From a bacterium (GTDB taxonomy: Bacteria; Verrucomicrobiota; Verrucomicrobiia; Limisphaerales; UBA11358), in contig JAJXXW010000093.1 in assembly GCA_021780905.1 (NCBI GenBank), positions 1,559 to 65,558 on the forward strand: a DNA stretch of 64,000 nt. The letters run 5' to 3'. Positions within the stretch are counted from its first letter, which is position 1. The number at the start of each line of letters is the position of its first letter. Both the position numbers and the translations under genes were made by a program. Under the pieces are notes generated by a model that did no database searches, was not told where the DNA came from, and saw only the letters and a list, made by a program, of their open reading frames with translations. Of this stretch, positions 19,755 to 54,656 are shown one piece after another.

Positions 19755-19829
19755 GGCGGGGTAGCCAAGTGGTAAGGCAGGGCTCTGCAAAAGCCTTATG
19801 CGTCGGTTCGATTCCGACCCTCGCCTCCA
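19755..19829 (+). tRNA. tRNA-Cys (GCA)
   Basis: Manual fold. Acceptor GGCGGGG/CCTCGCC (one G-U), U8. Anticodon stem GGGCT/AGCCT with loop CTGCAAA. T arm GTCGG-TTCGATT-CCGAC. U73 discriminator and encoded CCA. Confidence 0.9.
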
Positions 19830-39832: not shown

Positions 39833-39988
39833 TCAAATTCTGCCCAGCAACAGCAGGACCAGCAGAATCACCGCAACCAAGCCGAGTCCGCCGCTGGGAT
39901 AGTAACCCCAAGTCCGGCTGTGCGGCCACGTCGGCAGCGCGCCGAGCAGCATGAGAACGAGCAGCACCAATAAGATAGTTCCTAACAT
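39833..39988 (-). CDS. DUF3309-family small membrane protein
   Basis: [56 protein letters not shown] sits 5 nt upstream of the ATG. No stop separates it from the upstream reading frame. Confidence 0.7.
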   Translation of the reverse strand: MLGTILLVLLVLMLLGALPTWPHSRTWGYYPSGGLGLVAVILLVLLLLGRI

Positions 39989-40290
39989 AATGTTCCTTTC
40001 AATCTGTGGTTGTGGTTGGTGAAAATATTTTCCGCGATTGTCGTCACGCCGATCGTCCTTCCGGCTCTGGCCTTGGTTTTCACCAGACGGCTTCCAGTTC
40101 TTGGGATATTGCTTGACCACTTCAGTGTGATGCTGGGCTGGCGAGTCGTGGAAATTCATCTTCACCGACGGCGACGCCCGCAGCACGTTCTCCGAGATTC
40201 CGCGCGGCGCGGACCGGGAAACCCACGCGTTGCCTTCGCGGTAGGCGTATTGATGCCGACTGACGCTGTAATAACATTCATAATTCGGGT

Positions 40291-41521
40291 CACAAATGTC
40301 CCCCAGCTTTGAGGGTTGGGTGAGGTAAAAAAGAGTTGGCTTGCGGGTTTGAACCCGGCCACAAGGTCGGGGATGAAAAAAAACAACGCGCCGCCAACCA
40401 ACGCGCAGCAGATTCACCCTCCTGCACCAACTCTGCGATCTGATTCCGACGCACCTCGTGCCCCAACTGGCCCGGGACACCGGGGTCGAGGAAAAGTCCC
40501 GCACCTTCACCCCGGCTTTGGCGGTCGCCGCCGGCCGAAGTTCGCCTTCCGCTTCCAACGCGCCATCCACCTCGTGGACACCACCCCCATCCCACTCATC
40601 GCCCGCTGTAGGGACTGGGCCCAACACCGCCGCCGCAAGGCCGCCGCCCAATGCCATCTCCGCCTGGATCTGCAAACCTTCCTGCCCCGCTTTGCCATCG
40701 GCGGCACCGCCGGCGAACACGACAGCCTCCGCGCCCGCGAACTCTGCGCGGGCGTGCGGGCCGGGGAAATCGTCATTTTCGCCAAGGCGTATCTGGACTT
40801 CGCCCATCTGGCTGACCTGGCGATGCGCGGCGCTTTCTGGGTCACCCGCGCCAAGGACAATTGGCGCTGCCGGGGGGGGCGCAAGTTCCAGCGCGGTCGC
40901 CACGGAAACATTCTTCGCGACGACCTGATCCACCTCACCGGTCCGGCCCGCAAGTATTACCCCGTCGAGCTGCGCCGGGTGGTCGCGCTCGTCGAGGGGG
41001 ACGGCCAAATGCGCGAGATGACTTTTCTGACGAACCACTTGGAATGGAGCGCGCCGACCATCGCCGACCTCTACCGCTGCCGCTGGGAGATCGAGGTGTT
41101 CTTCAAGCAGATCAAACAAACGCTGCAACTGGCGGACTTCTTGGGCAACAGCGCCCACGCCGCGCAGTGGCAAATCTGGACCGCGCTGCTGACCTACGTG
41201 CGGCTGCGCTGCTGCGCGTGGCTTAGGCAGTGGACGCACAGTTTCACCCGCCTCTTTGCGTTGTTGCGCTCGGCCCTGTGGCAGAAACTCGACCTGCGCA
41301 GCCTGCGGGAAGTCTGTGGGACAGCCGGAGGCGGCGGTCGCTTTTGGGGCACGCCCCAGCAGGCTTTTCTTGCCGGATTCGGATGAAGCTAGGGGACAGC
41401 CGCTTCGCATGAACACGTGACCGATTCAAAAATCCTTAAACTCGTTTTCGCTGCCGCCCCTCGATTCCTTCGGAAAACCATGCCGAAAGGCGAGAATCAC
41501 GCGGCTATTGGGACGACACTG
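40291..41521 (+). mobile_element. decayed IS4-family element (non-autonomous relic)
   Basis: Flanked by a perfect 9-bp direct repeat AATTCGGGT (40282-90 / 41522-30). Only imperfect terminal inverted repeats (CACAAATGTCCCCC.. vs CAGTGTCGTCCC..). The transposase is frameshifted and internally deleted. Confidence 0.75.
40316..41386 (+). pseudogene. IS4-family DDE transposase, disrupted
   Basis: Core ..AIHLVDTTPI.., ..FWVTRAK.., ..YRCRWEIEVFFKQIKQ.. in one frame. The N-terminal-domain-like peptide RSRFTLLHQLCDLIPTHLVPQLARDTGVEEKSRTFTP is in another frame, behind an A8 run (40376-83). About 90 aa appear to be missing between the two parts. Confidence 0.75.
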
Positions 41522-41693
41522 AATTCGGGTAATAAATATAGTCGTCCTGCACGACAGCTACCCCCGGCTGCGCATAATATCCGGCGCGCGGCCCATCCAC
41601 ATAACCCACGCAGCCAGTCAGCGTGACCAAGAATGTAAAGCATAGCGCGAGCCCGACTTTGTTTGTTCCGAGAAAAATTTGTTTCTTGTTTAT

Positions 41694-41742
41694 AAGTTGA
41701 GAATAGTCCCGCCACGCATTGTCCGCTATGGGGTGTAACCCT
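41694..41742 (-). promoter_or_regulatory. motif site A: AGGGTTACACCCCATAG-N20-TATTCT-N6-ATA
   Basis: 17-nt block 41726-41742 is identical to 50127-50143. A -10-like TATTCT follows, and the ATA codon at 41693 lies 32 nt from the motif. Confidence 0.55.
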
Positions 41743-41754
41743 GCCGGCGGGTTC

Positions 41755-43212
41755 TTACTCCATTGCGGCCAGCAGTTCGTCCAGCGGCACGGTGGCGAAG
41801 CTGGTGGCGGAGTCACTCATCGCATAGGGAATGATGAGTTCGCGTCCATGCAGCAGCGCGCCGCAGGTATAAACCACGTTCGGCACATAGCCTTCGCGCT
41901 CGGCTTCGTTCGGACACAGAAACGGCTCGCGCAGGCGGCCAATGACGCGCGTGGGATCGTTCAAATCAAGCAGGATGGCACCGAGGCAATACTTGCGCAT
42001 CGCGCCGACGCCGTGAGTCAGCACTAGCCAGCCCGTCTCGGTTTCAAGCGGCGAACCGCAGTTGCCCAGCTTGATGAATTCCCACGGTTGCACGGGGGTG
42101 AGCAAGATTTTAGGCGTCTGCCAGAAATGGAGGTTGTCCGAAAACATCAGCAAAATGTTCTCGTCATCCTGGCGCGAGAGCATGGCGTAATGCCCGTTGA
42201 TTTTGCGCGGAAACAGCGCCATGCCCTTGTTCTGCACGGCGGGGCCGTTGAGCGTGCGAAATTTGAAATGCAGGAAGTCCGGCGTCTCCAGTAATTGCGG
42301 CAGGGTGATCTTGCCGTCGTAGGCCGTGTAGGTCGCGTAGTAAGCGAAACTGCCGCCCTCGTTCAAAAAGCGGACGAAGCGCGCATCTTCGATGCCGTTG
42401 CTCTGGCTGGGCGCGGACGGAAAAAGCACGCGCTGCGAAATTTTGCTCCCAGGCGCGAAGTGGACTTCGTAATTTGATTCCGCCAGCAGCAGGATGCCGC
42501 GCGCGGCGCGGGCCGCAGTGGCGTCGGAAGTGTCCGTCAGGCCGAACGCCACCAGAACCGCATGCAGTTCCTTGAGGGTGAAATCCTCATGCAGCTTGTC
42601 CAGCACGCGCCGGCAAAAATCATTTTGCACGCCGGCCTCCTCCAGTTTGTGGGCGAACAATCCCTTGACGTAGGCGACGTCGGGCACGCGCTCCGGCTCG
42701 GCCACAAACGGCACGGGCGGCGTGAGCGTGATGCGCTGATGGGCGCTGACGACGCCGACGCGGAAGGTGATGGAGGAAATGTGTCCCTCGCCCGTGGCGC
42801 GCAAACTCAAAATGAAACGCAGCGCGCCTTTGGGCAATCCGCTCTGATCGGGATGCGGCACGATGGACGGATTGAAGAGGGCCGCTGATTCCGGCGAATA
42901 CTCGTGCGTGAAGTAAGCGCCGATGAGCATCTGCCGTTCGGGCGAGAGCAACACGCCGGGTTCGAGATAAATCTTCACCTGCTCGAAACGGTTGCGAAAA
43001 GTAACGTCCACTTGCTCGTGCCGGTCCGTGAACTCGCCGAGCACACGGACGAGCAACCTGGCGACTTCCTGCTCCGGCAAGACCATGACCCGCGCGACGA
43101 TCCGCCGCGAGATGTCATCGGTGGTCGGACGAAACGGGCGCAGCAGCACGCGCGAACGATCTGGAATCAGCGTCGGCCCGATGCGTTTGGCGTGGAGGGT
43201 GGTGGTTTTCAA
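41755..43212 (-). CDS. GH130-family glycosidase/phosphorylase-like protein with long N-terminal extension
   Basis: ..GIEDARFVRF.., ..GYVPNVVYTCG.. beta-propeller GH130/DUF377-like signatures in the C-terminal 300 aa. Confidence 0.7.
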   Translation of the reverse strand: MKTTTLHAKRIGPTLIPDRSRVLLRPFRPTTDDISRRIVARVMVLPEQEVARLLVRVLGEFTDRHEQVDVTFRNRFEQVKIYLEPGVLLSPERQMLIGAYFTHEYSPESAALFNPSIVPHPDQSGLPKGALRFILSLRATGEGHISSITFRVGVVSAHQRITLTPPVPFVAEPERVPDVAYVKGLFAHKLEEAGVQNDFCRRVLDKLHEDFTLKELHAVLVAFGLTDTSDATAARAARGILLLAESNYEVHFAPGSKISQRVLFPSAPSQSNGIEDARFVRFLNEGGSFAYYATYTAYDGKITLPQLLETPDFLHFKFRTLNGPAVQNKGMALFPRKINGHYAMLSRQDDENILLMFSDNLHFWQTPKILLTPVQPWEFIKLGNCGSPLETETGWLVLTHGVGAMRKYCLGAILLDLNDPTRVIGRLREPFLCPNEAEREGYVPNVVYTCGALLHGRELIIPYAMSDSATSFATVPLDELLAAME

Positions 43213-43291
43213 TCAGGTAAAGTCTCGGTTACATGGGCGGGAAAGCGAGCATTGATTTCCGCTGCTTGATTCCCATGATGTTCGCGGCGGT

Positions 43292-45922
43292 TTATTTTCG
43301 CGGTTCGTTTTTCCGAATCTCCTGTTCCGCCTGCTCCCAATTCTGAACCGCATGACCGTCGTGGCGGCCTTGCTGCTCGTAGGCGCGCTTGGCGATCTCT
43401 GGTGTCACATCAACCGGTTTCCTGGCCCCAGCCTTGACCACGCGCCATTTGATCAGCACGACCTTCACCGCGTCGTTGACCAGCAGGCACGCGACCAGCG
43501 CATAGACGAAAATCACGAGCGTCTGCCCCCAAGGCAAGGGCAGGAGTCCCGGAAGACCCACCAACGTCAGCACGGTGCCCGCGAGCGCGCCCGCCAGGAG
43601 CGACGCCAGGAAGGACTTGCTCGGCAGTGTCGCCCAGAACCAGCGTCGCTCTCGCACCGACACGGCGGAAAAAACGCAAAAATAAAGCAGCGTCAGGAAG
43701 CTGAAGGTGCCGAGCGCATGGCTATCCGTCGCCAAACCGAAACGTGACCAGCCGATCCATAAGAAGAAAAGTGTTTCCGCGACCATCGCGACGCCGAGGA
43801 CCACGGAGACTAAGATGAAGCTCCCGATCACCCACGTCTCCGGTTTCCTGGAGGGTTGAACGCGGTCGGTGGCCAGGGCGATGGTCGCGAAGTCCAGCAC
43901 GAACACGAGCAGCAGCATCGCCAGGACGGAGACCACAAACTTGCCGGTCACCATGAACGCGATGGCGACGAACGCCGCCTTCAGGATCGTCCGGCTGATC
44001 TTGTTGATGATCCACGTCAGAATGCGCTGGTAAATCGTCCGCCCCTGCTCAACCAGCGCCACGATATTCGTCAATCCCGCTTCGGTCAGGACGACGCTTG
44101 CGGCACCCTTGGCCACGTCCGTCGCGGTGCTGACGGCGATGCCGACTTCGGCCTGGCGGAGCGCGGGCGCGTCGTTGACGCCATCGCCCGTCATGCCGGT
44201 GACATGCCCCGCAGCTTGCAGGTGTTTCACCACGGTGTATTTGTCTTCGGGAAATACTTCCGCGAAACCATCGGCACCCGCGAACAGGTCAACTGTTTGG
44301 TTGCCGGCCGCCGCGCTCGCCGCTTTCAACTCCGCCACGCGCTTGATGTTGGGCAATCCGACGCCGCTCCCGATCTCACACGCCACGGGCAGCGCGTCGC
44401 CGGTGAGCATCTTCACCGGCACGCCAAGATCGTGAAGCGTGGCGATAAGTTGCTTGGCGTCCGGCCGCGGCGGATCATACAACGACACCAATCCGACCAA
44501 AGTGAGAGCGCCTGTCTCAGGGCCGTGCGCCACCGCCAGTGTCCGATAGCCCTTTACCGCCGCCGCGCTGACCCGCGCCTCCAACGCCTCGATGGCCGGG
44601 GGCTGGAATCCGCAGGCTTCGGCGATGGTGCGCACGGCGCCTTTCATCACGCGCAGCCGCTGACCGCTCTGTTCCACCACGGCTTCCGTCCGCCGGTTTT
44701 TTGCCTCAAACGGTGCGAACGAAACCGGCGTGACCTTGGGCAGATTGTCGAAGACGTGCCGGTCTTTGGCTGCCGTGAGAAACGCGAGGTCTATCGGGTC
44801 TTGGTTGGCTTCCTGCGATGCGAGCGCGCCGGCGAACAGCACATCGGCTTCCGTCGCGTGCTCCAGCGGAATCACGCCGGTGACAGCGAGTTGGTTCATC
44901 GTGATCGTGCCCGTCTTGTCCACGCAGAGCACGTCCATCGTCGCGGCATCCTCCGCCGCGCTAAGACGAGTCACCAGCACGCCGCGCTTCGCCAGTTCTT
45001 TCGACCCGACAGCCATGCTGACTGTGAACATGACCGGGAGTGCGACCGGCACCGCGCTCATCAGCAGGACGAGCATGAGCGGAATCATTTCCATGAGCGG
45101 CGTGCCGCGAACCAGCGACAGCACGATCACCACGCCCAGCAGCGCGCCGACGATGACGAAGAGCCAGCGGACGACCTTGGTTACAACTGCTTCGATGTGA
45201 AGTTTTGGCCGCGCCTCCTGCACGAGTTGCGTCGTGCGGCCAAAATAGGTTTTCGCCCCGGTCAACATCACCACGCCGTTGCCTTCGCCCCGGCGGACGA
45301 CCGACCCGGACGAGAGCACTTCGCCCGGCTTCTTGTCGGCGTCCTTCGATTCGCCGGTGAGTGCCGATTGGTCAACACTCATCGCGCCGGTCAGAAGCTT
45401 CACGTCCGCCGGAATGATGTCGCCGGGGCGAACACGGACGATGTCGCCGGGAACCAGTTCGCGGGCGGGAATGACCTGCCAGCTTGAATCACGCAAGACG
45501 CGCGCATTGACCTGCAACCGTTTTCGCAGCGCCTCAACCACACCAGCGGCCCGGCTTTCCTGCATGAAACTCAACACCGCGTTGATCACCAGCAGCGCGC
45601 CCACGACGGCGAGGTCTGAATAATTTCCCAGCACGGCGGACAGCACCATGATCAGTTCGAGCATCCACGCGGAGATGCCCCAAAACTTCTTCAGGAATTT
45701 GAGGATCGGGTGGCCTTTGGTTTTGGCCACTTCGTTGAAGCCGTTTTCTTTCCGGCGGGTTTCCACCTCGGTCCGCGCCAGCCCGGTGTCGGGGTTGACT
45801 TTGAGCGACGCCAGCGTGTCGGGAACCGACGCCGAGGCAATGTCCGGCGGCTTGGTGCCGGCGGGCTGGGCGGGTGGCGGCTTGGTTTCGGGCTTATTTG
45901 GCGGCGTTGGCATAGTGGACAT
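43292..45922 (-). CDS. P-type ATPase, plasma-membrane H+-ATPase (P3A) type
   Basis: CVDKTGTITMNQL phosphorylation site and MTGDGVNDAPALRQAEVGIAV hinge; 10-TM-like layout. ATG 45922 preceded by GGAGAG. Confidence 0.9.
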   Translation of the reverse strand: MSTMPTPPNKPETKPPPAQPAGTKPPDIASASVPDTLASLKVNPDTGLARTEVETRRKENGFNEVAKTKGHPILKFLKKFWGISAWMLELIMVLSAVLGNYSDLAVVGALLVINAVLSFMQESRAAGVVEALRKRLQVNARVLRDSSWQVIPARELVPGDIVRVRPGDIIPADVKLLTGAMSVDQSALTGESKDADKKPGEVLSSGSVVRRGEGNGVVMLTGAKTYFGRTTQLVQEARPKLHIEAVVTKVVRWLFVIVGALLGVVIVLSLVRGTPLMEMIPLMLVLLMSAVPVALPVMFTVSMAVGSKELAKRGVLVTRLSAAEDAATMDVLCVDKTGTITMNQLAVTGVIPLEHATEADVLFAGALASQEANQDPIDLAFLTAAKDRHVFDNLPKVTPVSFAPFEAKNRRTEAVVEQSGQRLRVMKGAVRTIAEACGFQPPAIEALEARVSAAAVKGYRTLAVAHGPETGALTLVGLVSLYDPPRPDAKQLIATLHDLGVPVKMLTGDALPVACEIGSGVGLPNIKRVAELKAASAAAGNQTVDLFAGADGFAEVFPEDKYTVVKHLQAAGHVTGMTGDGVNDAPALRQAEVGIAVSTATDVAKGAASVVLTEAGLTNIVALVEQGRTIYQRILTWIINKISRTILKAAFVAIAFMVTGKFVVSVLAMLLLVFVLDFATIALATDRVQPSRKPETWVIGSFILVSVVLGVAMVAETLFFLWIGWSRFGLATDSHALGTFSFLTLLYFCVFSAVSVRERRWFWATLPSKSFLASLLAGALAGTVLTLVGLPGLLPLPWGQTLVIFVYALVACLLVNDAVKVVLIKWRVVKAGARKPVDVTPEIAKRAYEQQGRHDGHAVQNWEQAEQEIRKNEPRK

Positions 45923-45948
45923 TCTCTCCGTGGCTGCTCGGTTGACCG

Positions 45949-48231
45949 CTATTTCCCATTGGGATCCTTGAAGCTGGTGAGCGTGTTTTGCAGCGCCCGC
46001 ATTTCCGCGAGCGACAGCAGAAAGGCCAGCGTGGATTCCGCACCTTGATTCTGGCTCAACCGGTCCATGTGCAAACCGTCGCGACAACCGCCGGTGCCCG
46101 CGTCGTAGAGCGCCAAGCCCAGATCGTTGCGGCCAAGAAACCACTCGAACGCTCGGCGCGCTTCCGCGACCCAGACCATGTCGCCCGTGGCATGATACGC
46201 TTCAATGCAGGCCGAAACCGTGGCTTGCGCCTCGATGGGTTGCTGGTCGAAGACCGCGCGTTCCTGGCCGCGCAGAAAAAATCCATTGGAACCGACAGGC
46301 CGGAATGAGCCGGCATCCGAGGTTTGAATTTTGGTCAGCCAGCGCAACGCTTTGATCCCGGTGTCCAGCAGCGGCGCGGCATTCAGACAGCGCCCGCTTA
46401 AAATCAGCGCGTGTGGCAGCTTGGCGTTCGCATACGAAACCACTTCTTCAAACCAGTGCCAGTCGTCGCGTGCAGTGTCGCCGTAGCTCTGCATCAGCCG
46501 CGTCGTAAGCGTTTCGCGAATGTGGTTCGCGCGTCGGTCGCCGCTGAACCGTCGCAGATATTCGTCAATGCCGATGAGCGTGAAGGCCCACGCGCGCGGC
46601 GACGAAAATTCGGCGGCCACCGGCAGCGCCTGCTCGAAGAGTTGCGCCGCGAGCATTTGAAAACTTCCCTGACCGGCCTGCGACACGCACAAGCCCAGCG
46701 CCCACAACGCATGGCCCTGGCAATCCTCCGAGCCGACTTCCTCCAGCCAACGCCGTTCGAAGCTCATGAAATTGCGGAAGCGTCCGCGCTGGCGGTCGAA
46801 GGCGTGGTTGAGAAACGCCGCATAAGTCGCAGCCCGCGTGCCAAGACACGGCGAACCATGCCCCAGCTTTTGCAGCAACAACGCCAACACCAGGGCGCGG
46901 GCGTTGTCGTCCGTGCAATAGCCTTCGGCAAAGTTCGGCACGGTGAAGCTCGCGTGTTGGAAAATCCCGGTTGAGTCGCTCATGCGAAACAGGTGATCCA
47001 GTTTTAGTTCTGGCAATTGCCCGGGCGATTCGTCGAGCGTTTTAATAGGCGAAGATTTTCTGCCGACGAAACTGTGGTCGTGCCGCGCCTGTTCGAAAGA
47101 TTTTGCGTAGAGCTGGGCCACGCGGCTCCAGATCATGTCACGGCCAATCTTGTAGGCGTTCTTGCGCATCAAATGACGCAACGGTTCGTCGCGCAGCAGC
47201 TCGACGACCGCGACCGCGATGGCCTTGGCGTCGCGGAACGGCACGAGTTTGCCGCGCTCCGCTGCGAGCATTTCCGTCGCGTGCCAGTAAGGCGTGGATA
47301 CGACGGCATTGCCGTTGCCGAACGCATACGCCAGCGTGCCCGAAGTAATTTGCGTTTCGGTCAAATACGGCGTCAGGTAAATATCCGCCGCGCCGATGAA
47401 GCGCATCAGTTCTTCCAGTTCGACGAAGCGGTTGAAGAACACCACGTTTTTTTGCACGCCGAGGTCTTTCGCCAACCGCTCCAAACTCAAGCGGTAAGCC
47501 TCGCCTTCGTGGCGCAGCAGATTCGGATGCGTCTGCCCGACCACGATATAGACGATGTTGGGAAATTCGCGGATGATTTCCGGCAGCGCCCGCAGCGCAT
47601 ATTCGATGCCCTTGTTCGGCGACAACAAACCGAACGTGAGCAGCACCTGTTTGCCCGCCACGCCGAATTCGTCCTTGAAATAATTTGGGTCGGCGAACGG
47701 CATATCGGGAATGCCGTGCGGAATGAGGTCAATTTTATTTTCCGGAGCGTGATAAACTTCGCGCAGAAATTCCTTGCCGCGCTCGCTCATCACAATCAGG
47801 CGCGTCGAAAGCCGGATCAATTCGCGCATCACGCGGCGCTGTTCGTCGTTTGGTTCGCGCAGGACCGTGTGCAGCGTAGTGACGATGGGCATTTGCAATT
47901 CGCGCAGCAGCGCCAGCACATGGCTGCCCGCCGGCCCGCCGAAAATGCCAAACTCATGTTCCACGCACACCACGTCCACATCCGTGATGTTCAGAAAATC
48001 CGCCGCGCGCAAATATGAAGTCAGGTCTTGCTCGGCGATTTCAAAACGCACTTCTGCCGGGTAATTGTAGCCCTCTGCGAGATCATTGACCGGCACAACG
48101 AGACATTGCAGTTGTGGAAATTCCTTTGCCACGGCGCAACGCAAGTCGGTGGTGAACGTGGCAATGCCACATTTTCTCGGCAGATAGTCGCCGAGAAAGG
48201 CGACCTTGCGAATGGGAGCGGCGAACTGCAT
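45949..48231 (-). CDS. GT4-family glycosyltransferase with large C-terminal domain
   Basis: N-terminal 400 aa resemble glycosyl transferase group 1 (..FGLLSPNKGIEYAL.., ..SERGKEF..). A further 350-aa C-terminal domain of unknown function follows. Confidence 0.75.
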   Translation of the reverse strand: MQFAAPIRKVAFLGDYLPRKCGIATFTTDLRCAVAKEFPQLQCLVVPVNDLAEGYNYPAEVRFEIAEQDLTSYLRAADFLNITDVDVVCVEHEFGIFGGPAGSHVLALLRELQMPIVTTLHTVLREPNDEQRRVMRELIRLSTRLIVMSERGKEFLREVYHAPENKIDLIPHGIPDMPFADPNYFKDEFGVAGKQVLLTFGLLSPNKGIEYALRALPEIIREFPNIVYIVVGQTHPNLLRHEGEAYRLSLERLAKDLGVQKNVVFFNRFVELEELMRFIGAADIYLTPYLTETQITSGTLAYAFGNGNAVVSTPYWHATEMLAAERGKLVPFRDAKAIAVAVVELLRDEPLRHLMRKNAYKIGRDMIWSRVAQLYAKSFEQARHDHSFVGRKSSPIKTLDESPGQLPELKLDHLFRMSDSTGIFQHASFTVPNFAEGYCTDDNARALVLALLLQKLGHGSPCLGTRAATYAAFLNHAFDRQRGRFRNFMSFERRWLEEVGSEDCQGHALWALGLCVSQAGQGSFQMLAAQLFEQALPVAAEFSSPRAWAFTLIGIDEYLRRFSGDRRANHIRETLTTRLMQSYGDTARDDWHWFEEVVSYANAKLPHALILSGRCLNAAPLLDTGIKALRWLTKIQTSDAGSFRPVGSNGFFLRGQERAVFDQQPIEAQATVSACIEAYHATGDMVWVAEARRAFEWFLGRNDLGLALYDAGTGGCRDGLHMDRLSQNQGAESTLAFLLSLAEMRALQNTLTSFKDPNGK

Positions 48232-48234
48232 GGA

Positions 48235-48462
48235 TCATTTCTGGACCGGCGGAGTGTGGTCATTACCACTGGCCGACACAATCGCGGCGGCTTTCAACAA
48301 GCCCTTGGATTTCTGCTGCCAGACTTTGGCTTCCGCCTCATTCTTTTCCTTCTCGGAGGATTCGCCGGTCAAAGATTCTTCAATGATGTCTTTCGCGACA
48401 GTCGCGCAGACTTTTGCCTTTTGCTGCATCGCTTCGGAAAGCTTGGTGGGTTCGGGGTTCAT
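48235..48462 (-). CDS. small hydrophilic protein
   Basis: 75 aa from ATG 48462, which overlaps the upstream stop (ATGA). Ends 3 nt before the GT start. Confidence 0.4.
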   Translation of the reverse strand: MNPEPTKLSEAMQQKAKVCATVAKDIIEESLTGESSEKEKNEAEAKVWQQKSKGLLKAAAIVSASGNDHTPPVQK

Positions 48463-48755
48463 GTCTGGTGGCTTGGTTTGGGCGGCGAACGGAATTCCGA
48501 CCAGAGCGAGCCGGCGAGCTGCACGCCTTTGAGGATGGATTCCAGCCACGATGTTATTTTAACGGCGGGCTGTCGTAGCTTCACCAGTTCGGAAACCAGC
48601 ACTACGGACGCGGACGCCAGGAAACGGAGGGTGGCCGTCTGCTGCGCCAGCTCGTTCGCTTCGCCCGCCAGCGTCTGCCAGTCTTGAGCCAGTTGGGCGC
48701 GGTTGAGTTCGCTTTCCGCAATCAACAGTTGTTTGCGCGAGGCGAGCGGGTTCAT
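48459..48755 (-). CDS. YqjK-like small protein
   Basis: MNPLASRKQLLIAESELNRAQL.. then a hydrophobic segment. Occupies the third position after the DUF883 and DUF1469-like genes, as in E. coli yqjD-yqjE-yqjK. ATGA overlaps on both sides. Confidence 0.45.
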   Translation of the reverse strand: MNPLASRKQLLIAESELNRAQLAQDWQTLAGEANELAQQTATLRFLASASVVLVSELVKLRQPAVKITSWLESILKGVQLAGSLWSEFRSPPKPSHQT

Positions 48756-49138
48756 GCGAGAAAATTTCCCAGGCAAGCGCGGTCTTTGCGCAGTTGATCC
48801 AGCGAGGCGGAAAGCGTCTGCCAGTTACGGAGCAAACCCGTCAGCCGCTGATAAAGAAAAATTCCGGCGGCGGCGTAGATGCCGGTCAAAATCAGCAGCA
48901 CAGCCACGGGCGAATATGCCTAAAGTAAAACCGCGATGGCGGTTGTGAGCGCGATGCCGGCGAGCAGGCCGAACGCAGCCACGCCGAGCGCCAGCAGGAA
49001 CGCGTGCAGGATTCGCTCGCGCTCCTCCTGCACCCTCACCGCCAGCAATTCCAGCCGGTTTTCGCCGATGGTCGCCAGTCGCCGCACGAATTTTTTCGAG
49101 GTTGTGGCCAACTGCCGCAAGCTGGTGGAGTTTTCCAT
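48752..49138 (-). pseudogene. YqjE / Holin-X (DUF1469)-like membrane protein with an in-frame TAG
   Basis: 72 codons (..ENRLELLAVRVQEERERILHAFLLALGVAAFGLLAGIALTTAIAVLL), then TAG at 48920-22, then 55 in-frame codons (AYSPVAVLLILTGIYAAAGIFLYQRL..). The second stretch supplies the expected second TM helix, and its TGA overlaps the next ATG. Confidence 0.6.
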
Positions 49139-49145
49139 GGTTTTA

Positions 49146-49454
49146 TCAATCGCAATTGCGCGAGGAACAGCGGCGACCAAGGAGATAACCGATGACCGCA
49201 CCAACGCCCACGCCGATGGCGATGGCCTGATACGGATTTGCGCGAACGGTTTCGTCGGCGACCTTTGCGCCAGCAATGGCCTGGTCGCGGACGCAACCGG
49301 CAACCTCCTTGGCGCTGTCCAGCGCGGCGGCAAGACGCTTGCGCGCGGCACCGACTTTTTCCCCGGCCACATCGGCGGTGGCGGACAATAATTCGCGCGC
49401 GTCCGCCGCGAGGGTGCCGAGGTCATTACCGGCGCCTTTGATTTCTTGGTTCAT
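49146..49454 (-). CDS. DUF883 (ElaB/YqjD-like) stress-associated membrane-anchored protein
   Basis: ..LLSATADVAGEKVGAARKRLAAALDSAKE.. and C-terminal ..NPYQAIAIGVGVGAVIGYLLGRR. ATG 49454 overlaps the upstream stop. Confidence 0.8.
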   Translation of the reverse strand: MNQEIKGAGNDLGTLAADARELLSATADVAGEKVGAARKRLAAALDSAKEVAGCVRDQAIAGAKVADETVRANPYQAIAIGVGVGAVIGYLLGRRCSSRNCD

Positions 49455-49831
49455 AATTTTTCTGTTTTTGTTTTGTTGGTGTTTTTCAACGGTAAATTTT
49501 CCGCTTTGGCGAGGTGTTTTGCTTCCGGCGAATCCGCCACCGTCAAAATGGAATTTCTTCCGCCGAACGGATTCGGCACGGACTCGCGTGCGCGCGGATC
49601 GGGTATCCACTTGCCGTCCACGATGAAGCAATACTCGTAAGTGCCGGTGGCGAGATTGGTTTTCTTCCACCAGTTGCTGGTGCCGGAGGAATGCAGCGTC
49701 TTGGCTTCAGGTTTCCAATTATTGAAACTGCCCGCCACACAAACGGTGATGGCGGTGGGATGTTTGAACTCAAAACGAACCGGCACGAGTTGCGGGCTGG
49801 TGACGTTGTCATGATTGTGATTATGTTTCAT
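49451..49831 (-). CDS. CBM48 / AMPK-beta glycogen-binding-domain protein
   Basis: ..VRFEFKHPTAITVCVAGSFNNWKP...TGTYEYCFIVDGKWIPDP.. Confidence 0.75.
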   Translation of the reverse strand: MKHNHNHDNVTSPQLVPVRFEFKHPTAITVCVAGSFNNWKPEAKTLHSSGTSNWWKKTNLATGTYEYCFIVDGKWIPDPRARESVPNPFGGRNSILTVADSPEAKHLAKAENLPLKNTNKTKTEKL

Positions 49832-49858
49832 ATTTTTAATTTATTTGATTGCGACGGG

Positions 49859-50056
49859 TCACCGGACTTGCGGCACATGGATGTCGCCCGCATGGCCGAT
49901 GATGCCAAACACAGATAGCAGCCACACGACGACGCAGATGACGACAACGATGTTGAGGATTTTTTTGATCTTCCCGTCCATCGGGATGTAGGTGTTGACC
50001 AGCCACAAGAGCACACCGATGACAATCAGGGTGACGACGAGAGAAATTAGTGACAT
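49859..50056 (-). CDS. Thivi_2564-like small membrane protein
   Basis: 65 aa with two hydrophobic helices: MSLISLVVTLIVIGVLLWLVNTYIPMDGKIKKILNIVVVICVVVWLLSVFGI.. Confidence 0.6.
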   Translation of the reverse strand: MSLISLVVTLIVIGVLLWLVNTYIPMDGKIKKILNIVVVICVVVWLLSVFGIIGHAGDIHVPQVR

Positions 50057-50094
50057 AGGTTGCCTTGGTTTGGAGTGGATGAATTATTTTTCAT
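50047..50094 (-). CDS. candidate 15-codon leader ORF (MKNNSSTPNQGNLCH*)
   Basis: Its ATG lies 32 nt from motif site B, the same spacing as the other three sites. Its stop lies 5 nt past the ATG of the 49859-50056 gene, in another frame. Confidence 0.3.
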   Translation of the reverse strand: MKNNSSTPNQGNLCH

Positions 50095-50143
50095 GTCGTG
50101 AGATTAGGCGGAAGCGACGGCACGGACTATGGGGTGTAACCCT
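50095..50143 (-). promoter_or_regulatory. motif site B: AGGGTTACACCCCATAG-N20-TAATCT-N6-ATG
   Basis: 17-nt block 50127-50143 is identical to 41726-41742. Overlaps the stop codon of the receiver gene. Confidence 0.55.
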
Positions 50144-50657
50144 ACCGCGCAGAATCACCACCGAGCCACGTCTGCAAAGGCAAGCGATTCCAGTTTGGCG
50201 GCGGCGTGGACTCCTGACGGTCGTGGGCGTCCATGTGCAAGACGTGCTTCACCGTTTCCAGCAATTCATCGAACGAATAAGGCTTGAGCAGGACAGCCTT
50301 GATTTCCAGCCACGGATGCCGGGCCAACTGATCCTCCTGCAAGGTTCCCGTGGCCATGATGACCGGCAGCTTCATGCTGGAATCGTGAAGCCTCTTCAGC
50401 AGTTCAATGCCGGACACCTTCGGCATATCATGGTCGGTGATCAACAAATCGTAGTTGTCTAGTTGCAACGCGTCCCAGGCGGCCGCCCCGTCTTCAGCGG
50501 CGTCCACATGATAGCCGGAGGAAATCAGCACTTCAGTGTTCAGACGGCGAATGTCCGGGTCATCCTCCGCCACGAGAATGCGCTGGCATGGATTTGCTTC
50601 AAGCAAAGGTAATGCGCTGGAAAATTCTCCGGCCCGCGAAAGTTGGTTGTTCTTCAC
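50142..50657 (-). CDS. single-domain response regulator (CheY-like receiver)
   Basis: ..ILVAEDDPDIRRL...DLLITDHDMPKVSG..LPVIMATG..; GTG start. Confidence 0.8.
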   Translation of the reverse strand: MKNNQLSRAGEFSSALPLLEANPCQRILVAEDDPDIRRLNTEVLISSGYHVDAAEDGAAAWDALQLDNYDLLITDHDMPKVSGIELLKRLHDSSMKLPVIMATGTLQEDQLARHPWLEIKAVLLKPYSFDELLETVKHVLHMDAHDRQESTPPPNWNRLPLQTWLGGDSAR

Positions 50658-50711
50658 GGTGCAACTATAAGCCGCAATCCCAGGCGGCAGCTATGGGGTG
50701 TTTTCCCCATG
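50658..50711 (-). promoter_or_regulatory. motif site C: CATGGGGAAAACACCCCATAG-N21-TATAGT-N6-GTG
   Basis: 50691-50711 is a half-palindromic copy. The GTG start of the receiver gene lies 33 nt from the motif. Confidence 0.55.
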
Positions 50712-50783
50712 CCCGATTTGATGAATCCGGCCCAGAATTGATTGCAAAATGGAAACGGGAATGAGGACGAAACCTGACGCGGA

Positions 50784-51035
50784 CTAATGCCCCTTGCTTT
50801 TGGATGCCGGAGGCGGCTTGGTTTCCAGATTTTCCGTAACCACGGCAATCATCGCTTCCATCCCTTCCTGGATTTCGTTGACCTGCGGATGCACCTCCTT
50901 GATGAGGTCGTGTTCCAATTTGGTAAGTTTTTCGATGCGTTTACCCTGATCGCGCAACTGATCCAGCAGAAACTTTGTTTGATGGAAATCACCGCATCCA
51001 CCAAAAGCAAATGCCTCAACAAATCGTGCCGACAA
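50784..51035 (-). CDS. hypothetical small helical protein
   Basis: 83-aa ORF with a TTG start, between the two regulator genes. No recognised family; weak support. Confidence 0.25.
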   Translation of the reverse strand: MSARFVEAFAFGGCGDFHQTKFLLDQLRDQGKRIEKLTKLEHDLIKEVHPQVNEIQEGMEAMIAVVTENLETKPPPASKSKGH

Positions 51036-51081
51036 CCGTCATCCAGAAAGCGAGATTGTTTTCGTTCATCCCAGAACTCGC

Positions 51082-51783
51082 CTAGACAATCGTCAACTGC
51101 ACGCTGCTTTCGATGATGCCCGCGCTGATGGCGTAGCGCGTGAGTCCGGCGGTGTCGTGGATGTCCAGCTTCTGCATCAGATGCTCGCGGTGTTTCTCAA
51201 CCGTCTTGATGCCGATGCCAAGGGCGTCCGCCGTTTCCTTGTTGGCCTTGCCTTCGGCGATAAGTTGCAGAACTTCCATTTCGCGCGAAGTCAGTTGGGC
51301 AATTTTCGAGTTCAGCTTGCCCGTTTTGCTGGGCAACTGCGGATTGAGACGGTTAAAATGTCTGGCAATCGAAGGGCTGAAAAAAGTTTTCCCCGCGTGA
51401 ACTTCCCGGATCGCCCGGCAAACGTCCTGCGCGGAAGTTTGCTTCAGCAGAAAGCCCACCGCGCCGGACTCGGTGGTGTTTTGCACATACGCGTCATCAC
51501 TGTGAGCGGAGAGCATGAGCACCTTGGTGCCGGGGATGGTTTTAAGAATCTGCCGCGTCGCTTCCAGGCCATTGAGCTGGGGCATGGCAATGTCCATCAG
51601 CACCACGGCGGGCCGGAGTTTTTTGGCGAGCGCCACCGCCTGACGTCCGTCCTGCGCTTCGCCCACCACTTCAAAATCGGCTTCCAGTTCCAGCATGTTG
51701 CGAAACCCCTCGCGCACGATCATGTGGTCTTCGGCCAGCAGCACGGTGATTTCTTTCATAGGCATTTCAATGGCTGATTTCAT
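51082..51783 (-). CDS. NarL/FixJ-family response regulator (receiver + LuxR HTH)
   Basis: ..VLLAEDHMIVREG...VVLMDIAMPQLNG.. receiver, and ..LTSREMEVLQLIAEGKANKETADALGIGIKTVEKHR.. LuxR-type HTH. Confidence 0.9.
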   Translation of the reverse strand: MKSAIEMPMKEITVLLAEDHMIVREGFRNMLELEADFEVVGEAQDGRQAVALAKKLRPAVVLMDIAMPQLNGLEATRQILKTIPGTKVLMLSAHSDDAYVQNTTESGAVGFLLKQTSAQDVCRAIREVHAGKTFFSPSIARHFNRLNPQLPSKTGKLNSKIAQLTSREMEVLQLIAEGKANKETADALGIGIKTVEKHREHLMQKLDIHDTAGLTRYAISAGIIESSVQLTIV

Positions 51784-52928
51784 TGGGTTTTTCTACCCCC
51801 CCCCCCCGGTTTTCCGAACGGAATTTGCGCCGTGATGGTGGTGCCTTGGCCGGGCGCGGATTCGACGCCAAATTTGCCGCCGACCATTTCCATGCGTTCC
51901 CTCATGCCGAGCAGGCCGAGACGCTTGCCGCCATTCGCGTGCAACGTGCGTTCCACCTGAAACGATTTGCCGTCGTCCTTGATTTTCATGCAGACGCCAT
52001 CGGGCAGTTTCTGGATGCTTACTTCCACGCGGCTGGCTTGCGCGTGGCGGGCGACATTGGTGAGCGCTTCCTGGGCGACACGAAACATCACCGTGCGCCG
52101 GGCCGTATCCAATTCTTCGATGCCGGCAAACGCTTTCAAATGCGTGCGGACGCCGGTGCGCGTGGTGAAATTTTTCATGAACGAATGCAGCGCGGGAATC
52201 AGGCCGAGATCGTCCAGCACGGCCGGGCGCAGTTCGCGCGCGAACCGATGCACGATGTCCACCGATTTTTCCACCAGCCGTTGCGTGCGCGCGATGTTGC
52301 GGTCAAGACCCTTGGTGTTGATCGCGGCTTCCTTGGACAGCGCCGCGAGCCGGACGTTGATGCCGGTCAATGTCTGGGCAATAACATCGTGCAGTTCGCG
52401 GCTGATTTCCCGGCGCTCTTCTTCCTGCGCGGTGAGAATCTGCCGCGATAACTGCCGCAACTGTTCCTGCAACCGGTCCGATTGCTCCAGCAGTTCGGAA
52501 TAATGACGCTCGCTCTTTTTGAGCGCCGCCTCCGCCGCCTTGCGGTGGCTGATTTCCTGATTCAATTCCAGATTCGACGCGGCCAGTTCCACCGTGCGTC
52601 GGCTCAACGTCTCGATGATTTTTCGCAGATAGACAGCGGCATCCTGGGTGCTGGTGTGTGTCTTCTCCAGCGGAAGAATCGCCTCGGCAAAAAAACTTCC
52701 CGCCTGCTTGATGAGCGCGGCGCGTTTGCCGGCCGGGACGCCGGGCAACAACTCGGTAACGAGCGTCTGCTCATGGAGCTTGGCCAGGTCCAGCGTTTGC
52801 AGTCCGGCGGCGTGAGCCAGACCGCCGACGCTGCGCGCTGAAGCCAAGCCCGCCTGCTTGCCCTGCTTTATTTGGATGCGCAACGCGTCCTGATAGCGGC
52901 GCGACGAATTGAAATGTTTGCGTTTCAT
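51780..52928 (-). CDS. cytoplasmic sensor histidine kinase (HisKA_3 + HATPase_c)
   Basis: H-box ..EEERREISRELHDVIAQTL.. and ATPase N/G boxes (..EALTNVARHA.., ..DDGKSF.., ..GLLGMRERMEMVGG..). No TM segments. Stop overlaps the RR start (ATGA). Confidence 0.85.
   Translation of the reverse strand: MKRKHFNSSRRYQDALRIQIKQGKQAGLASARSVGGLAHAAGLQTLDLAKLHEQTLVTELLPGVPAGKRAALIKQAGSFFAEAILPLEKTHTSTQDAAVYLRKIIETLSRRTVELAASNLELNQEISHRKAAEAALKKSERHYSELLEQSDRLQEQLRQLSRQILTAQEEERREISRELHDVIAQTLTGINVRLAALSKEAAINTKGLDRNIARTQRLVEKSVDIVHRFARELRPAVLDDLGLIPALHSFMKNFTTRTGVRTHLKAFAGIEELDTARRTVMFRVAQEALTNVARHAQASRVEVSIQKLPDGVCMKIKDDGKSFQVERTLHANGGKRLGLLGMRERMEMVGGKFGVESAPGQGTTITAQIPFGKPGGGGRKTQ
51796..51807. repeat. 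12-nt homopolymeric C/G tract
   Basis: 12 consecutive C on the + strand. Encodes PGGGG in the last 9 codons of the kinase. Lies 13-24 nt upstream of the RR ATG. Confidence 0.95.
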
Positions 52929-53623
52929 GCTTTTCGAAATTCGCGGGCGGCCCGCCGCACGGAGCTGGCCGACTTGGCCACCAGCCGTTGCGTGCTGGCA
53001 ATTTCCAGCTTAAGCCCCTTTGTGTTGATCCGCGACTCCTGTTTCAAGGAGAGCAGCCGAACATTGATGCCCAGCAGGGTTTGGGCGACTTCATCCTGAA
53101 GTTCCAGGCTGATCTTTTTCCGTTCCTCCTCCTGGGCCGCCAGCACTTGATGCGTCAGTTGCCGCAAACCTTCTTGCAGGTGCAGGGAATCTTTTAACAG
53201 CTTGGTGTAATGCACCCCGCTTTTCTTGAGCGCGGCCTCCACGCGCTTGCGCCGGAGGACGCCGCGCTTCAACTGCCGGTTGGTGACGGCCAGTTCCAGC
53301 GTGCGCCGGCCGAGCGTTTCCTTCAACCGGTGCAAATCGGTTTTGTTCTGTCGCGCGGCACGATGCGTCTCCACAATCGGCGTGAGCGCTTCGGTGAAAA
53401 AAATTTCCGCCCGCTGGATAAAGCCGTTTTTACTGGTGGTTAATTCAAGTGTATTCAGCGCCCGTTCGTGAATCCGCGCCAGTTCCAATGTCTCCACGCC
53501 GAGGGCGACCGCCTGGCGTCCCAGTTCCAGTGCCGGCTGTAAACTCGCACGTGCGCCTGGTTTAAGGTGCGTCCGCAATGCCGTCGCATAACGTTGCGAC
53601 AGCTGAATTAGTTTTTGCTTCAT
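52925..53623 (-). CDS. truncated histidine-kinase paralogue (sensor + DHp only, H-box His replaced by Gln)
   Basis: Collinear with the first ~230 aa of the 51780-52928 kinase. The H-box reads ..EEERKKISLELQDEVAQTL.. Ends ..RRAAREFRKA* just after DHp helix 2, with no HATPase_c domain. Stop overlaps the kinase start (ATGA). Confidence 0.7.
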   Translation of the reverse strand: MKQKLIQLSQRYATALRTHLKPGARASLQPALELGRQAVALGVETLELARIHERALNTLELTTSKNGFIQRAEIFFTEALTPIVETHRAARQNKTDLHRLKETLGRRTLELAVTNRQLKRGVLRRKRVEAALKKSGVHYTKLLKDSLHLQEGLRQLTHQVLAAQEEERKKISLELQDEVAQTLLGINVRLLSLKQESRINTKGLKLEIASTQRLVAKSASSVRRAAREFRKA

Positions 53624-53721
53624 ATTGGCATCCTGATGGCGGCGGGAATGGGCGAAAAGCTTTAACTTTCGCGGGCGGGCCGCCAATGCAAAACAAACAT
53701 CAGATAATTTTCCCGATTTGG

Positions 53722-53776
53722 CTATGGGGTGAACACCCCATAGTTCCAGTCCGCATTTCAGGCGATGCTATGAGCT
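53722..53776 (+). promoter_or_regulatory. motif site D: perfect palindrome CTATGGGGTG-AA-CACCCCATAG-N22-TGCTAT-N5-ATG
   Basis: 53722-53743, in the divergent spacer between the kinase operon and the lipoprotein gene. The ATG at 53777 lies 33 nt from the motif. Confidence 0.55.
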
Positions 53777-54223
53777 ATGAAAAATAAAGCATTGCTCATC
53801 ACGTTCCTTTCCGCCGCGCCCCTTGCCGTGGGATGCGATAAGGAAAAATCCACCGCGCAACAGATCGAGACGGTCAAAGCCGAATCCAAGCAGGCTGCGT
53901 CGGACATGAAGGATTATACCTTTGCTCAAAAGGATGAATTCGTCAAAGCCATGCAAGCCCAGTTAGCCGCGCTGGACAAAGATCTGGATACGCTCTCGGC
54001 CAAAATTGACAAATCGAGCGACGCCATCAAGGCCGAAGCCAAACCCAAGTTGCAGGCTTTGCGCGATCAGGCCGCGAAGTTAAATACGCAGCTCGCCGAT
54101 GCCCAGAACGCCACGGAATCCACCTGGGACAGCGTCAAGGCCGGCACCAAAACAGCTTACGAATCGGTGGTGAAAGGTTTCAATGACGCTCGCCAGTGGG
54201 TGAGCGACAAAATCGCGCCTTAA
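53777..54223 (+). CDS. lipoprotein with apolipoprotein/LEA-like helical repeats
   Basis: MKNKALLITFLSAAPLAVGC lipobox, then an A/K/D/Q-rich amphipathic repeat region. Confidence 0.6.
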   Translation: MKNKALLITFLSAAPLAVGCDKEKSTAQQIETVKAESKQAASDMKDYTFAQKDEFVKAMQAQLAALDKDLDTLSAKIDKSSDAIKAEAKPKLQALRDQAAKLNTQLADAQNATESTWDSVKAGTKTAYESVVKGFNDARQWVSDKIAP

Positions 54224-54571: not shown

Positions 54572-54656
54572 TGGTGGTAGGTGATGGATTCGAACCATCG
54601 AAGGCATAGCCAGCAGATTTACAGTCTGCCCCCGTTGGCCACTTGGGTAACCTACC
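54572..54656 (-). tRNA. tRNA-Tyr (GTA), class II with long variable arm
   Basis: Manual fold of the reverse complement: acceptor GGTAGGT/ACCTACC, anticodon loop CTGTAAA, long variable arm, T arm GATGG-TTCGAAT-CCATC, A73, encoded CCA. Confidence 0.9.

Follow-up and report, generated by a model that had tools for sequence, protein, structure and literature searches.

In a 64-kb stretch of DNA from a bacterium of the Limisphaerales (phylum Verrucomicrobiota; contig JAJXXW010000093.1 of GenBank assembly GCA_021780905.1), the 10-nt motif CACCCCATAG recurs at a nearly fixed distance ahead of start codons. (We refer to the whole 64-kb stretch as the window.) A reading of the letters alone, which we will call the original prediction, had proposed that this is a promoter-associated motif of a regulon, and comparison across related loci bears this out. 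We think that the motif forms the promoter-proximal half of an operator of 20-22 bp, to which a dimeric activator would bind; the response regulator encoded at 51082-51783, next to one of the sites, is the most likely candidate for this activator. We hold this view with fair confidence. From the motif, its geometry, its conservation, the genes that follow it, and the site at the regulator's own operon, we infer what binds the operator, the direction of regulation, where the transcripts start, and what kind of signal is involved.

Conserved promoter-like sites in related genomes

The window contains five exact copies of the motif, at four places: 41726-41735, 50127-50136, 50691-50700, and 53722-53731 on the reverse strand, and 53734-53743 on the forward strand. 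Only 0.03 copies would be expected, and none of 100 shuffles reached five. (A search of the window with one mismatch allowed found no further copies.) Several details that had been read from the sequence are correct: 41726-41742 and 50127-50143 are identical over 17 nt (AGGGTTACACCCCATAG), 53722-53743 is a perfect palindrome, and the motif-to-start distances are 32, 32, 33, and 33 nt. The motif had been drawn too short, however. The conserved element is about 20-22 bp rather than 10 bp, and its conserved upstream half has GG at -6/-5 in all sites. (We count these positions, and those given with a plus sign, from the first base of the motif.)

Related loci were collected by scanning a genome collection with the regulator; we used the best 80 of more than 547 relatives, or 1.23 Mb in total. 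Most of these loci are from metagenome-assembled genomes (MAGs) of Verrucomicrobia subdivision 3, Limisphaerales, or Verrucomicrobiia, and many come from the SPRUCE and MFD samples. They contain 133 exact copies of CACCCCATAG. With a relaxed definition of a site (GG at -6/-5 and at most one mismatch in the 10-mer), there are 309 sites in the 80 loci and the window, as compared to 1 in the reversed-sequence control. Just 11% of the sites lie inside open reading frames (ORFs) of at least 900 nt, versus 53% of random positions. Enrichment outside of genes had been suggested as a check on the original prediction, as had presence at orthologous loci, and the sites do precede the same gene families across the 80 related loci. 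We also trained a 23-nt weight matrix on the related loci only, with the window excluded, and then ran it on the window. The five oriented sites scored 27-32 bits. The next score (12.8) was the site at 50691 read in reverse, and after that the best score was 4.1, versus a maximum of 4.3 in the reversed-sequence control.

A second set of sites is independent of the regulator: it came from a scan of metagenomes that was seeded with the 20-mer GGTAGGGTWACACCCCATRG only. (This 20-mer represents class R, one of two classes of sites that we describe below.) At least 120 contigs matched. At these sites, TAnnnT follows the motif at 19-22 nt in 89 of 128 cases and at exactly 20 nt in 65, the peak of start codons is at +41 to +44, and the gene families downstream are those seen in the first set. 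The regulator gene is present in only 5 of the 28 metagenome loci of at least 8 kb. Because of this, we think that the regulon is dispersed, and not compact as originally proposed.

We considered a mobile or repetitive element as another explanation for the repeated motif and rejected it: the sites are oriented, they lie ahead of orthologous genes in 80 species, and they lack flanking repeats. Literature searches on both 10-mers returned primer matches only, with no relevant context. Eleven of the contigs (L026, L027, L048, L058, L065, L070, L074, L075, L076, L081, and L085) are labelled as Bifidobacteriaceae, Baltobacteraceae, Limnocylindrales, Terracidiphilus, Kapaibacterium, or Akkermansia. 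Their regulators are 75-82% identical, with the same synteny, and these are probably mis-binned or mislabelled MAGs.

The sites share a promoter-like layout. In a logo of 138 exact sites, RKKRGGKNWA is followed by CACCCCATAG and a C, an unconserved stretch, T/A at +30/+31 and T at +35 (TAnnnT), and A-rich sequence from about +44. (Within the 10-mer, changes of A8 to G, C0 to T, and G9 to T are tolerated.) The spacer between the motif and TAnnnT is 20 nt at 92 sites and 21 nt at 51. So the operator would end 20-21 bp before a sigma-70-type -10 element ((T/G)AnnnT) and would stand in for a -35 element. If the transcript starts at the start codon, then this spacing puts the dyad centre at -43.5 to -44.5. 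At the position 17-18 nt ahead of the -10, the regulon's promoters have TAGCnn, which is not a usable -35, and the autoregulated promoter has TATACA.

Many messages of the regulon appear to begin at the start codon, a leaderless arrangement that leaves no space for a Shine-Dalgarno sequence. Of 305 sites, 80 have an ORF of at least 60 codons that starts at +42 (22 sites), +43 (45 sites), or +44 (13 sites), where the background is about 3-6 per position. The gap between the hexamer and the start codon is 6-7 nt in 50 of 63 cases. The start codons at the sites are ATG (74), GTG (21), or TTG (6), and codons 2-5 are rich in Lys and Asn. Among 308 sites, the predicted transcript start coincides with the start of a long ORF at 101 and of a short ORF at 77; the remaining 130 sites have no start codon there and have A-rich leaders of about 30-90 nt. 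The original prediction of leaderless units therefore holds in that the starts of long ORFs peak at the predicted transcript start, but it would apply to only about a third of the sites. The fraction of A among the first bases is 0.41 with a start codon and 0.32 without one, relative to a background of 0.22. Because the enrichment is also seen without a start codon, it seems to be a property of the first transcribed bases and not of the codons alone. We also surveyed 795 long ORFs from the same loci that have no motif ahead of them. There was no clear TAnnnT peak and only a faint Shine-Dalgarno signal, although this survey is crude and its start codons are noisy.

A side observation concerns promoters of BON genes (for example, L008 at 5791, L015 at 4672, and L029 at 5644). 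These keep a GTG at +43, in caaGTGttaaaaaccaacaac, with the real ATG about 40 nt downstream. The GTG's frame is sometimes closed at once by TAA, and the leader is A-rich and has no Shine-Dalgarno sequence. This suggests selection on the first transcribed bases themselves.

We found two discrete classes of sites, which differ in the upstream half. Class P (about 140 sites) is a palindrome, ATGGGGTG-WW-CACCCCAT, where WW is AA or TT. Class R (about 100 sites) is asymmetric, GGTAGGGTWA-CACCCCATRG, with a left arm of GGTAGGGT(T/A)A. Class R is only partly symmetric, and its left arm resembles the palindromic arm shifted 1 bp closer. Of the sites in the window, those at 53722-53743 and 50691-50710 belong to class P, and those at 50127-50146 and 41726-41745 to class R. 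Across loci, the gene for the CheY-like receiver and the operon of the regulator itself follow class P sites, whereas class R sites precede the genes for BON, Thivi_2564, and Tyr-rich lipoprotein, and mostly the gene for the sll1863-like lipoprotein. We did not adopt the idea that class R is a degenerate tandem repeat, as the bases upstream of GGTAG are unconserved outside of L031 and L054. These two loci have overlapping sites in tandem (about 7478-7496 in L031 and 7476-7494 in L054): a class P site and then, 15 nt on, a class R site (ATGGGGTGAACACCCCATAGGGTTACACCCCATGG). The tandem sites sit between the BON gene and the regulator operon, and the end of the first site forms part of the class R left arm.

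The genes behind the sites resemble a stress regulon. Among the families that most often follow a site, the CheY-like receiver comes first (46 sites in 35 loci), ahead of the pseudo-kinase operon that includes the regulator (29 sites) and an OsmY-like protein with three BON domains (25 sites). The other frequent families are Thivi_2564, the sll1863-like lipoprotein, CBM48, the Tyr-rich lipoprotein, YflT, OsmC, PRC+BON, DUF883 (ElaB), DUF2934, an outer-membrane barrel, a B12-radical-SAM enzyme, and (by eye) a fatty-acid desaturase. In the metagenome set we also saw, by eye, new target families: Dps-like, dodecin-like, old-yellow-enzyme-like, and Spy-like proteins and small lipoproteins. OsmY/BON, ElaB/YqjD (DUF883), OsmC, YflT, Dps, and PRC-barrel proteins are members of the sigma B, sigma S, or EcfG regulons. 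By their content, then, the predicted targets are proteins typical of general-stress regulons.

The candidate regulator and rival readings

The original prediction named the adjacent two-component system, with its HisKA_3 kinase and LuxR-type regulator, as a candidate reader of the motif. Indirect support for this comes from a site upstream of the system's own operon, which we found in 48 of the 50 loci with enough upstream sequence. The site is 72-128 nt before the ATG of the pseudo-kinase (mode, 107-108 nt). In 25 of these 48 sites, the left arm is at least 7/8 complementary, and most of the 48 have GATGTT, GATATT, or GATAGT 20 nt after the motif. They typically read ...CACCCCATATACAGATTG..., which gives TATACA, a 4/6 match to TTGACA. 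This partial -35 could allow basal expression, which we would expect because a positively autoregulated system needs it.

The sites also vary between lineages. In a variant sublineage (L037, L038, L048, L063, L070, and L072), CACC[G/T]NAT[A/G]G replaces CACCCCATAG at the same positions and ahead of the same genes (for example, at 7978, 11196, and 11913 in L070 and at 8075 and 11702 in L048). The two arms of the own-operon sites co-vary: L060 has ATAGGGTG-TT-CACCCTAT, and L048 has ATCAGGTG ... CACCTGAT. Such joint changes of both arms would be expected for a symmetric dimer. (The own-operon arms of L048 and L063 are about 17-18 bp apart instead of 2 bp.)

The regulator itself (51082-51783, reverse strand) belongs to the NarL/FixJ (LuxR) family, with a REC domain and a GerE helix-turn-helix domain (Pfam Response_reg, E = 2.9e-28, and GerE, E = 5.3e-18). 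Its closest solved structures are VraR (7e-42), NarL, DesR, and DevR. It scores below the cutoff of every NCBIfam equivalog (MctR, NarL, UvrY/GacA, UhpA, and others), with 202 bits versus a cutoff of 300 for MctR and 136 versus 250 for NarL. Across the 80 loci, the regulator's identity among relatives is 74-89%. The window holds no second regulator of the REC + GerE type, and this family is the only helix-turn-helix regulator that we found consistently across the related loci.

Two more proteins are encoded in the operon, both on the reverse strand, and the order of pseudo-kinase, kinase, and regulator is conserved among related loci. The histidine kinase (51780-52928; 382 amino acids) has HisKA_3 and HATPase_c domains (4e-13 and 1.5e-14), and Pfam finds no other domain in it (no GAF in particular). 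Its histidine box, ELHD, is retained in all 45 of 45 orthologues. The pseudo-kinase (52925-53623; 232 amino acids) has, according to Pfam, an RsbU_N-like domain and HisKA_3 but no ATPase domain. Its phospho-acceptor histidine is replaced by glutamine (ELQDE) in the window and in about 40 of 51 orthologues; a few retain the histidine. The N-terminal domain of the kinase is paralogous to the pseudo-kinase (49.6% identity over 236 residues), but the match to RsbU_N is clear only for the pseudo-kinase (33.3 bits versus a cutoff of 25.5; for the kinase, E = 0.062). Possibly, the pseudo-kinase modulates the kinase. The presence of an RsbU_N-like domain is a hint that an RsbT-like partner provides input, and such domains with RsbT-like input have been discussed for other phyla (PMC9237108). 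There is no RsbR-RsbS-RsbT module next to the operon within the window, where the operon's upstream neighbour is the divergent lipoprotein gene; we did not make a genome-wide search for one.

Given these components, we propose that the cytoplasmic HisKA_3 kinase would phosphorylate the regulator, and the dimer would bind the operator and recruit RNA polymerase (class II activation, as for DosR/DevR). We propose class II activation because the predicted centre near -44 matches the DosR box and because the regulator is in the same family (as a relative of VraR, NarL, DesR, and DevR). The DosR box at the hspX promoter has its centre at -43.5, and this promoter combines a suboptimal -35 with a consensus -10 (PMC13486717). 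In the promoters considered here, transcription would begin 6-7 nt past the hexamer. That would yield a leaderless long ORF at about a third of the promoters and, at the others, a short ORF or a short A-rich leader, mostly without a Shine-Dalgarno sequence. The pseudo-kinase/kinase/regulator operon would be activated from its own, usually palindromic, site (positive autoregulation), and the induced single-domain receiver would probably feed back on phosphotransfer. The targets would form a general-stress or dormancy-type regulon that is dispersed over the genome.

Some of our results do not fit this proposal well. Most of the metagenome sites are away from the regulator gene, so linkage alone cannot identify the reader. 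The recognition helix, KTVEKHREHLMQKL, is nearly invariant among the 80 orthologues, even in the variant-site sublineage. A change of Met to Ile in the helix tracks the variant sites imperfectly, as it occurs in 5 of 7 variant loci and in 1 canonical locus. Without clean covariation, we could not use the covariation of protein and DNA as proof of the reader. Also, the left arm of class R is 1 bp closer and is different yet conserved (GGTAGGGT), which a simple homodimer model fails to explain, and at about 40% of the sites the predicted transcript start does not coincide with any start codon. The distance between the metagenome sites and the regulator gene, the lack of clean covariation, and the second specificity that the class R arm suggests would all fit with a different DNA-binding protein, encoded elsewhere, that reads the sites, while the adjacent two-component system would merely be a target. 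We consider this unlikely. The most symmetric sites are upstream of the regulator's own operon, where nearly every locus has a site, and no other helix-turn-helix regulator is found consistently in these loci. In addition, an inverted repeat whose G and C cores are one helical turn apart suits dimers of the NarL family, such as DosR (PMC13486717).

The original prediction offered an alternative sigma factor as another potential reader, in which case the motif would be the -35 element of a promoter class and the sigma factor would be encoded elsewhere. General-stress regulons in other phyla are controlled by sigma factors (sigma B, sigma S, and EcfG), the RsbU_N-like domain of the kinase is known from the sigma B pathway, and the motif shows strong conservation and a fixed spacing to a -10-like element. 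However, the conserved block extends from about -54 to -33, and its 3' end is 20-21 bp from the -10, versus spacers of 16-19 bp for the sigma-70 family. The -10 is the housekeeping TAnnnT and not of the extracytoplasmic function (ECF) type, about half of the sites are dyad-symmetric, and the arms co-vary in variant lineages. Furthermore, we found a gene for an ECF sigma factor in only 1 of about 200 loci, by an RpoE-seeded phmmer search of ORFs of at least 110 amino acids, which has limited sensitivity. The geometry, the symmetry, and this near-absence make a sigma factor quite improbable as the reader. We give even less credence to a repressor, in which the regulator or some other protein would keep the promoters off until stress releases it. 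Repressors often have palindromic operators at their own promoters, but the site is upstream of the -10 and the transcript start and does not overlap them, and its predicted geometry matches that of the DosR activation complex. The promoters also lack a recognizable -35, and because of this they should be weak without help.

Sites and genes in the window

Among the four places in the window, the palindrome at 53722-53743 (CTATGGGGTG-AA-CACCCCATAG, or 10-2-10) is a class P site. It lies between two divergent promoters, for an sll1863-family lipoprotein on the right and for the pseudo-kinase/kinase/regulator operon on the left. On the right, the -10-like hexamer is GATGCT (53764-53769, forward strand), 20 nt after the motif and 7 nt before the ATG at 53777, and orthologous promoters retain gATGCT at the same spacing. 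The original prediction had chosen TGCTAT, at 22 nt, for this promoter, and we replace it with GATGCT; the other three hexamers that it listed (TATTCT, TAATCT, and TATAGT, at 20, 20, and 21 nt) stand. The lipoprotein gene (53777-54223, forward strand) has a start codon that coincides with the predicted transcript start, and its orthologues start at +42/+43. Its product had been described as an LEA-like lipoprotein. It does have a lipobox (LAVGC), but its family is the sll1863 stress proteins (NCBIfam NF052504; 56.9 bits versus a cutoff of 35). This protein is also encoded on other MAG and metagenome contigs, including GCA_021837905.1.

On the left, GATGTT (53696-53701, reverse strand) follows the leftward half-site after 20 nt. 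Transcription is predicted to begin near 53689, which would leave a leader of about 65 nt to the ATG at 53623, with AGGA before the ATG. This leader (about 53624-53689 in the window) and those of orthologues have conserved blocks, gataaagctttc or gagagatcaa...ccgga depending on the lineage, with no match in Rfam. An Rfam scan of the window found two tRNAs only (19755-19826, forward strand, and 54575-54656, reverse strand) and no match at the sites or leaders, and we rejected the reading of the sites as structured RNA.

The remaining sites and the genes behind them are on the reverse strand. A class P-type site, ATGGGGAAAA-CACCCCATAG (50691-50710), is upstream of the gene for the CheY-like receiver (50142-50657). 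Its -10-like hexamer, TATAGT (50664-50669), is 21 nt after the motif and 6 nt before the GTG at 50657, and this GTG is at the predicted transcript start. (Orthologues start at +42 to +48.) The receiver is a single-domain protein of 171 amino acids (Pfam Response_reg) in which the acidic pocket, the phospho-accepting Asp, and the Lys are all present.

A class R site, GGTAGGGTTA-CACCCCATAG (50127-50146), heads a string of genes at 41755-50056. Here TAATCT (50101-50106) is 20 nt after the motif and 6 nt before an ATG at 50094, which opens an ORF of just 15 codons (50047-50094) at the predicted transcript start. The stop codon of this mini-ORF overlaps the start of the next gene, Thivi_2564 (ATGTCACTAA). 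The arrangement recurs: of 19 Thivi_2564 homologues, 15 have an ATG or GTG at +42/+43, and 2 more do by eye. The mini-ORF has 14, 15, or 16 codons, which is to say that its length varies by whole codons, and its stop is always at +7 of the main ATG (ATGTCACTGA) with the frame preserved. In most cases the main gene is preceded, at 6-8 nt, by a GGAGG of its own. Apart from what the Shine-Dalgarno sequence and the overlap constrain, the peptide shows little conservation. The likeliest explanation is that the mini-ORF is leaderless and that its termination is coupled to initiation at the main gene, with translation of the mini-ORF itself being presumed.

After Thivi_2564 (49859-50056), the string continues with AMPK1_CBM/CBM48 (49451-49831), a DUF883 protein similar to ElaB/YqjD (49146-49454), a small membrane protein (48920-49138), an ORF of 105 amino acids (48459-48776), a GT4 glycosyltransferase (45949-48231), a P-type ATPase with a C-terminal DUF2934 domain (43292-45919), and, as its last gene, a GH130-like protein (41755-43212). 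The CBM48 and GT4 genes have their own motif sites in some other genomes. DUF2934 is found elsewhere as a free-standing protein of 85 amino acids, with a predicted leaderless start behind the motif (cluster C23 of the regulon).

The fourth site is class R, GGCAGGGTTA-CACCCCATAG (41726-41745). It begins 9 nt past the stop codon of the GH130-like gene, as an internal promoter. TATTCT (41700-41705) follows the motif at 20 nt and is separated by 6 nt from the ATA at 41693, which the original prediction took as a start codon. This ATA (41691-41693) aligns with Met1 of intact Tyr-rich lipoproteins of 149 amino acids, whose ATG is at +41 to +43. In the window, tblastn with an intact orthologue shows that the gene is in two pieces: a 5' fragment at 41526-41693 (residues 1-60) and a 3' fragment at 40064-40288 (residues 60-134). 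An insertion sequence (approximately 40298-41521, forward strand, with a DDE_Tnp_1 transposase at 40316-41386) splits it at ...YYP/N.... Because the intact orthologues have ATG at this position and the gene is split, we read ATA as a decayed ATG and not as an odd start codon. The Tyr-rich lipoprotein gene in the window is, by this comparison, a pseudogene that is decaying behind an intact promoter. The insertion also moves the 3' fragment, a DUF3309 gene (39833-39988), and a PRC-barrel gene (39055-39795) about 1.2 kb farther from the promoter at 41726. A second, IS5-like element is at 37626-38782, with a DDE_Tnp_1/DUF772 transposase (37680-38630) and perfect inverted repeats of 15 bp (GAGACCTCTGAAAAA / TTTTTCAGAGGTCTC).

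Comparison with known systems

The closest parallel that we know of is DosR/DevR from Mycobacterium tuberculosis. Both systems have a NarL-family regulator with REC and GerE domains and a HisKA_3 kinase (DosS/DosT in M. tuberculosis). Both use an inverted repeat of about 20 bp in which a G-rich core is followed, about one helical turn further on, by a C-rich core; in both, the operon of the regulator has a site of its own, and the targets are stress or dormancy proteins. The DosR box is at about -43.5/-44.5, with a poor -35 and a good -10 (PMC13486717), and the sites that we describe have the same layout relative to the predicted transcript start. There are also clear differences. The half-site is CACCCCATAG here, while the DosR consensus is AGTCCCSAA, and the regulator is nearer to VraR than to DevR in sequence. 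The sensor is RsbU_N-like with no GAF domain, according to Pfam, while DosS/DosT have GAF sensors. The operon includes a pseudo-kinase that lacks the histidine and the ATPase domain, and it is from a different phylum. The targets differ as well: BON, DUF883, OsmC, YflT, and sll1863 here, as compared to the universal stress proteins (USPs) and HspX for which the DosR regulon is known. Many mycobacterial transcripts are leaderless.

The sites can also be compared to the 7-2-7 sites of NarL (TACYYMT-NN-AKRRGTA). Both have a heptamer core that is rich in C (xACCCCx) and a central spacer of 2 bp, and the regulators belong to one family, but the polarity of the arms is reversed (G-rich and then C-rich here, on the top strand), and each half-site spans about 10 bp here. 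There is strong overlap between the target families and those of the sigma B (Bacillus), sigma S (E. coli), and EcfG (Alphaproteobacteria) regulons; in contrast to those systems, there is apparently an activator at -44 of housekeeping-type promoters, and ECF sigma genes are nearly absent from the loci, as mentioned above. Leaderless genes of Actinobacteria and Deinococcus likewise have TAnnnT 6-7 nt ahead of an ATG or GTG, too close for a Shine-Dalgarno sequence to fit in between. Here, however, the arrangement is tied to one regulon, in that the 795 other ORFs have no comparable peak (a weak comparison, given the noisy starts).

So the kind of system, a NarL-family activator with its box at -44, is already well known. 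What appears to be new is the motif with its two classes of sites, the regulon, the tie to leaderless starts, and the pseudo-kinase. Verrucomicrobia subdivision 3 (Pedosphaerales/Limisphaerales-like bacteria) are abundant in soils, peat, and freshwater and are almost entirely uncultured. In the literature on this subdivision, we did not find a described regulon, promoter class, or stress-response regulator, and a literature search for leaderless transcripts or genes, or for a stress regulon, found nothing that tied these to Verrucomicrobia. To our awareness, this is the first comparative evidence for leaderless genes in this phylum.

A bolder idea is that these bacteria have a general stress response that is run by a two-component activator instead of a sigma factor, with the activator replacing the -35 element and leaderless or A-rich 5' ends replacing ribosome-binding sites. 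Its parts would be the cytoplasmic RsbU_N-type kinase, the pseudo-kinase without the histidine, the NarL-type regulator, and the receiver that feeds back. We offer this tentatively, as it is plausible but goes well beyond our preferred reading of the operator. If it is true, then stress proteins would be made via a dedicated route that combines transcription and translation, including the leaderless mini-ORF that would couple to Thivi_2564. In any case, the element is a sequence-defined marker of a putative stress regulon in at least 80 species, and the regulon would include the glycosyltransferase/GH130/proton-pump cluster and the desaturase, with a specific two-component system indicated as the switch. 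The element can help to annotate start codons, as the decayed ATG illustrates, and it may be useful for reading metatranscriptomes from peat and soil and for designing inducible promoters for the few cultured relatives.

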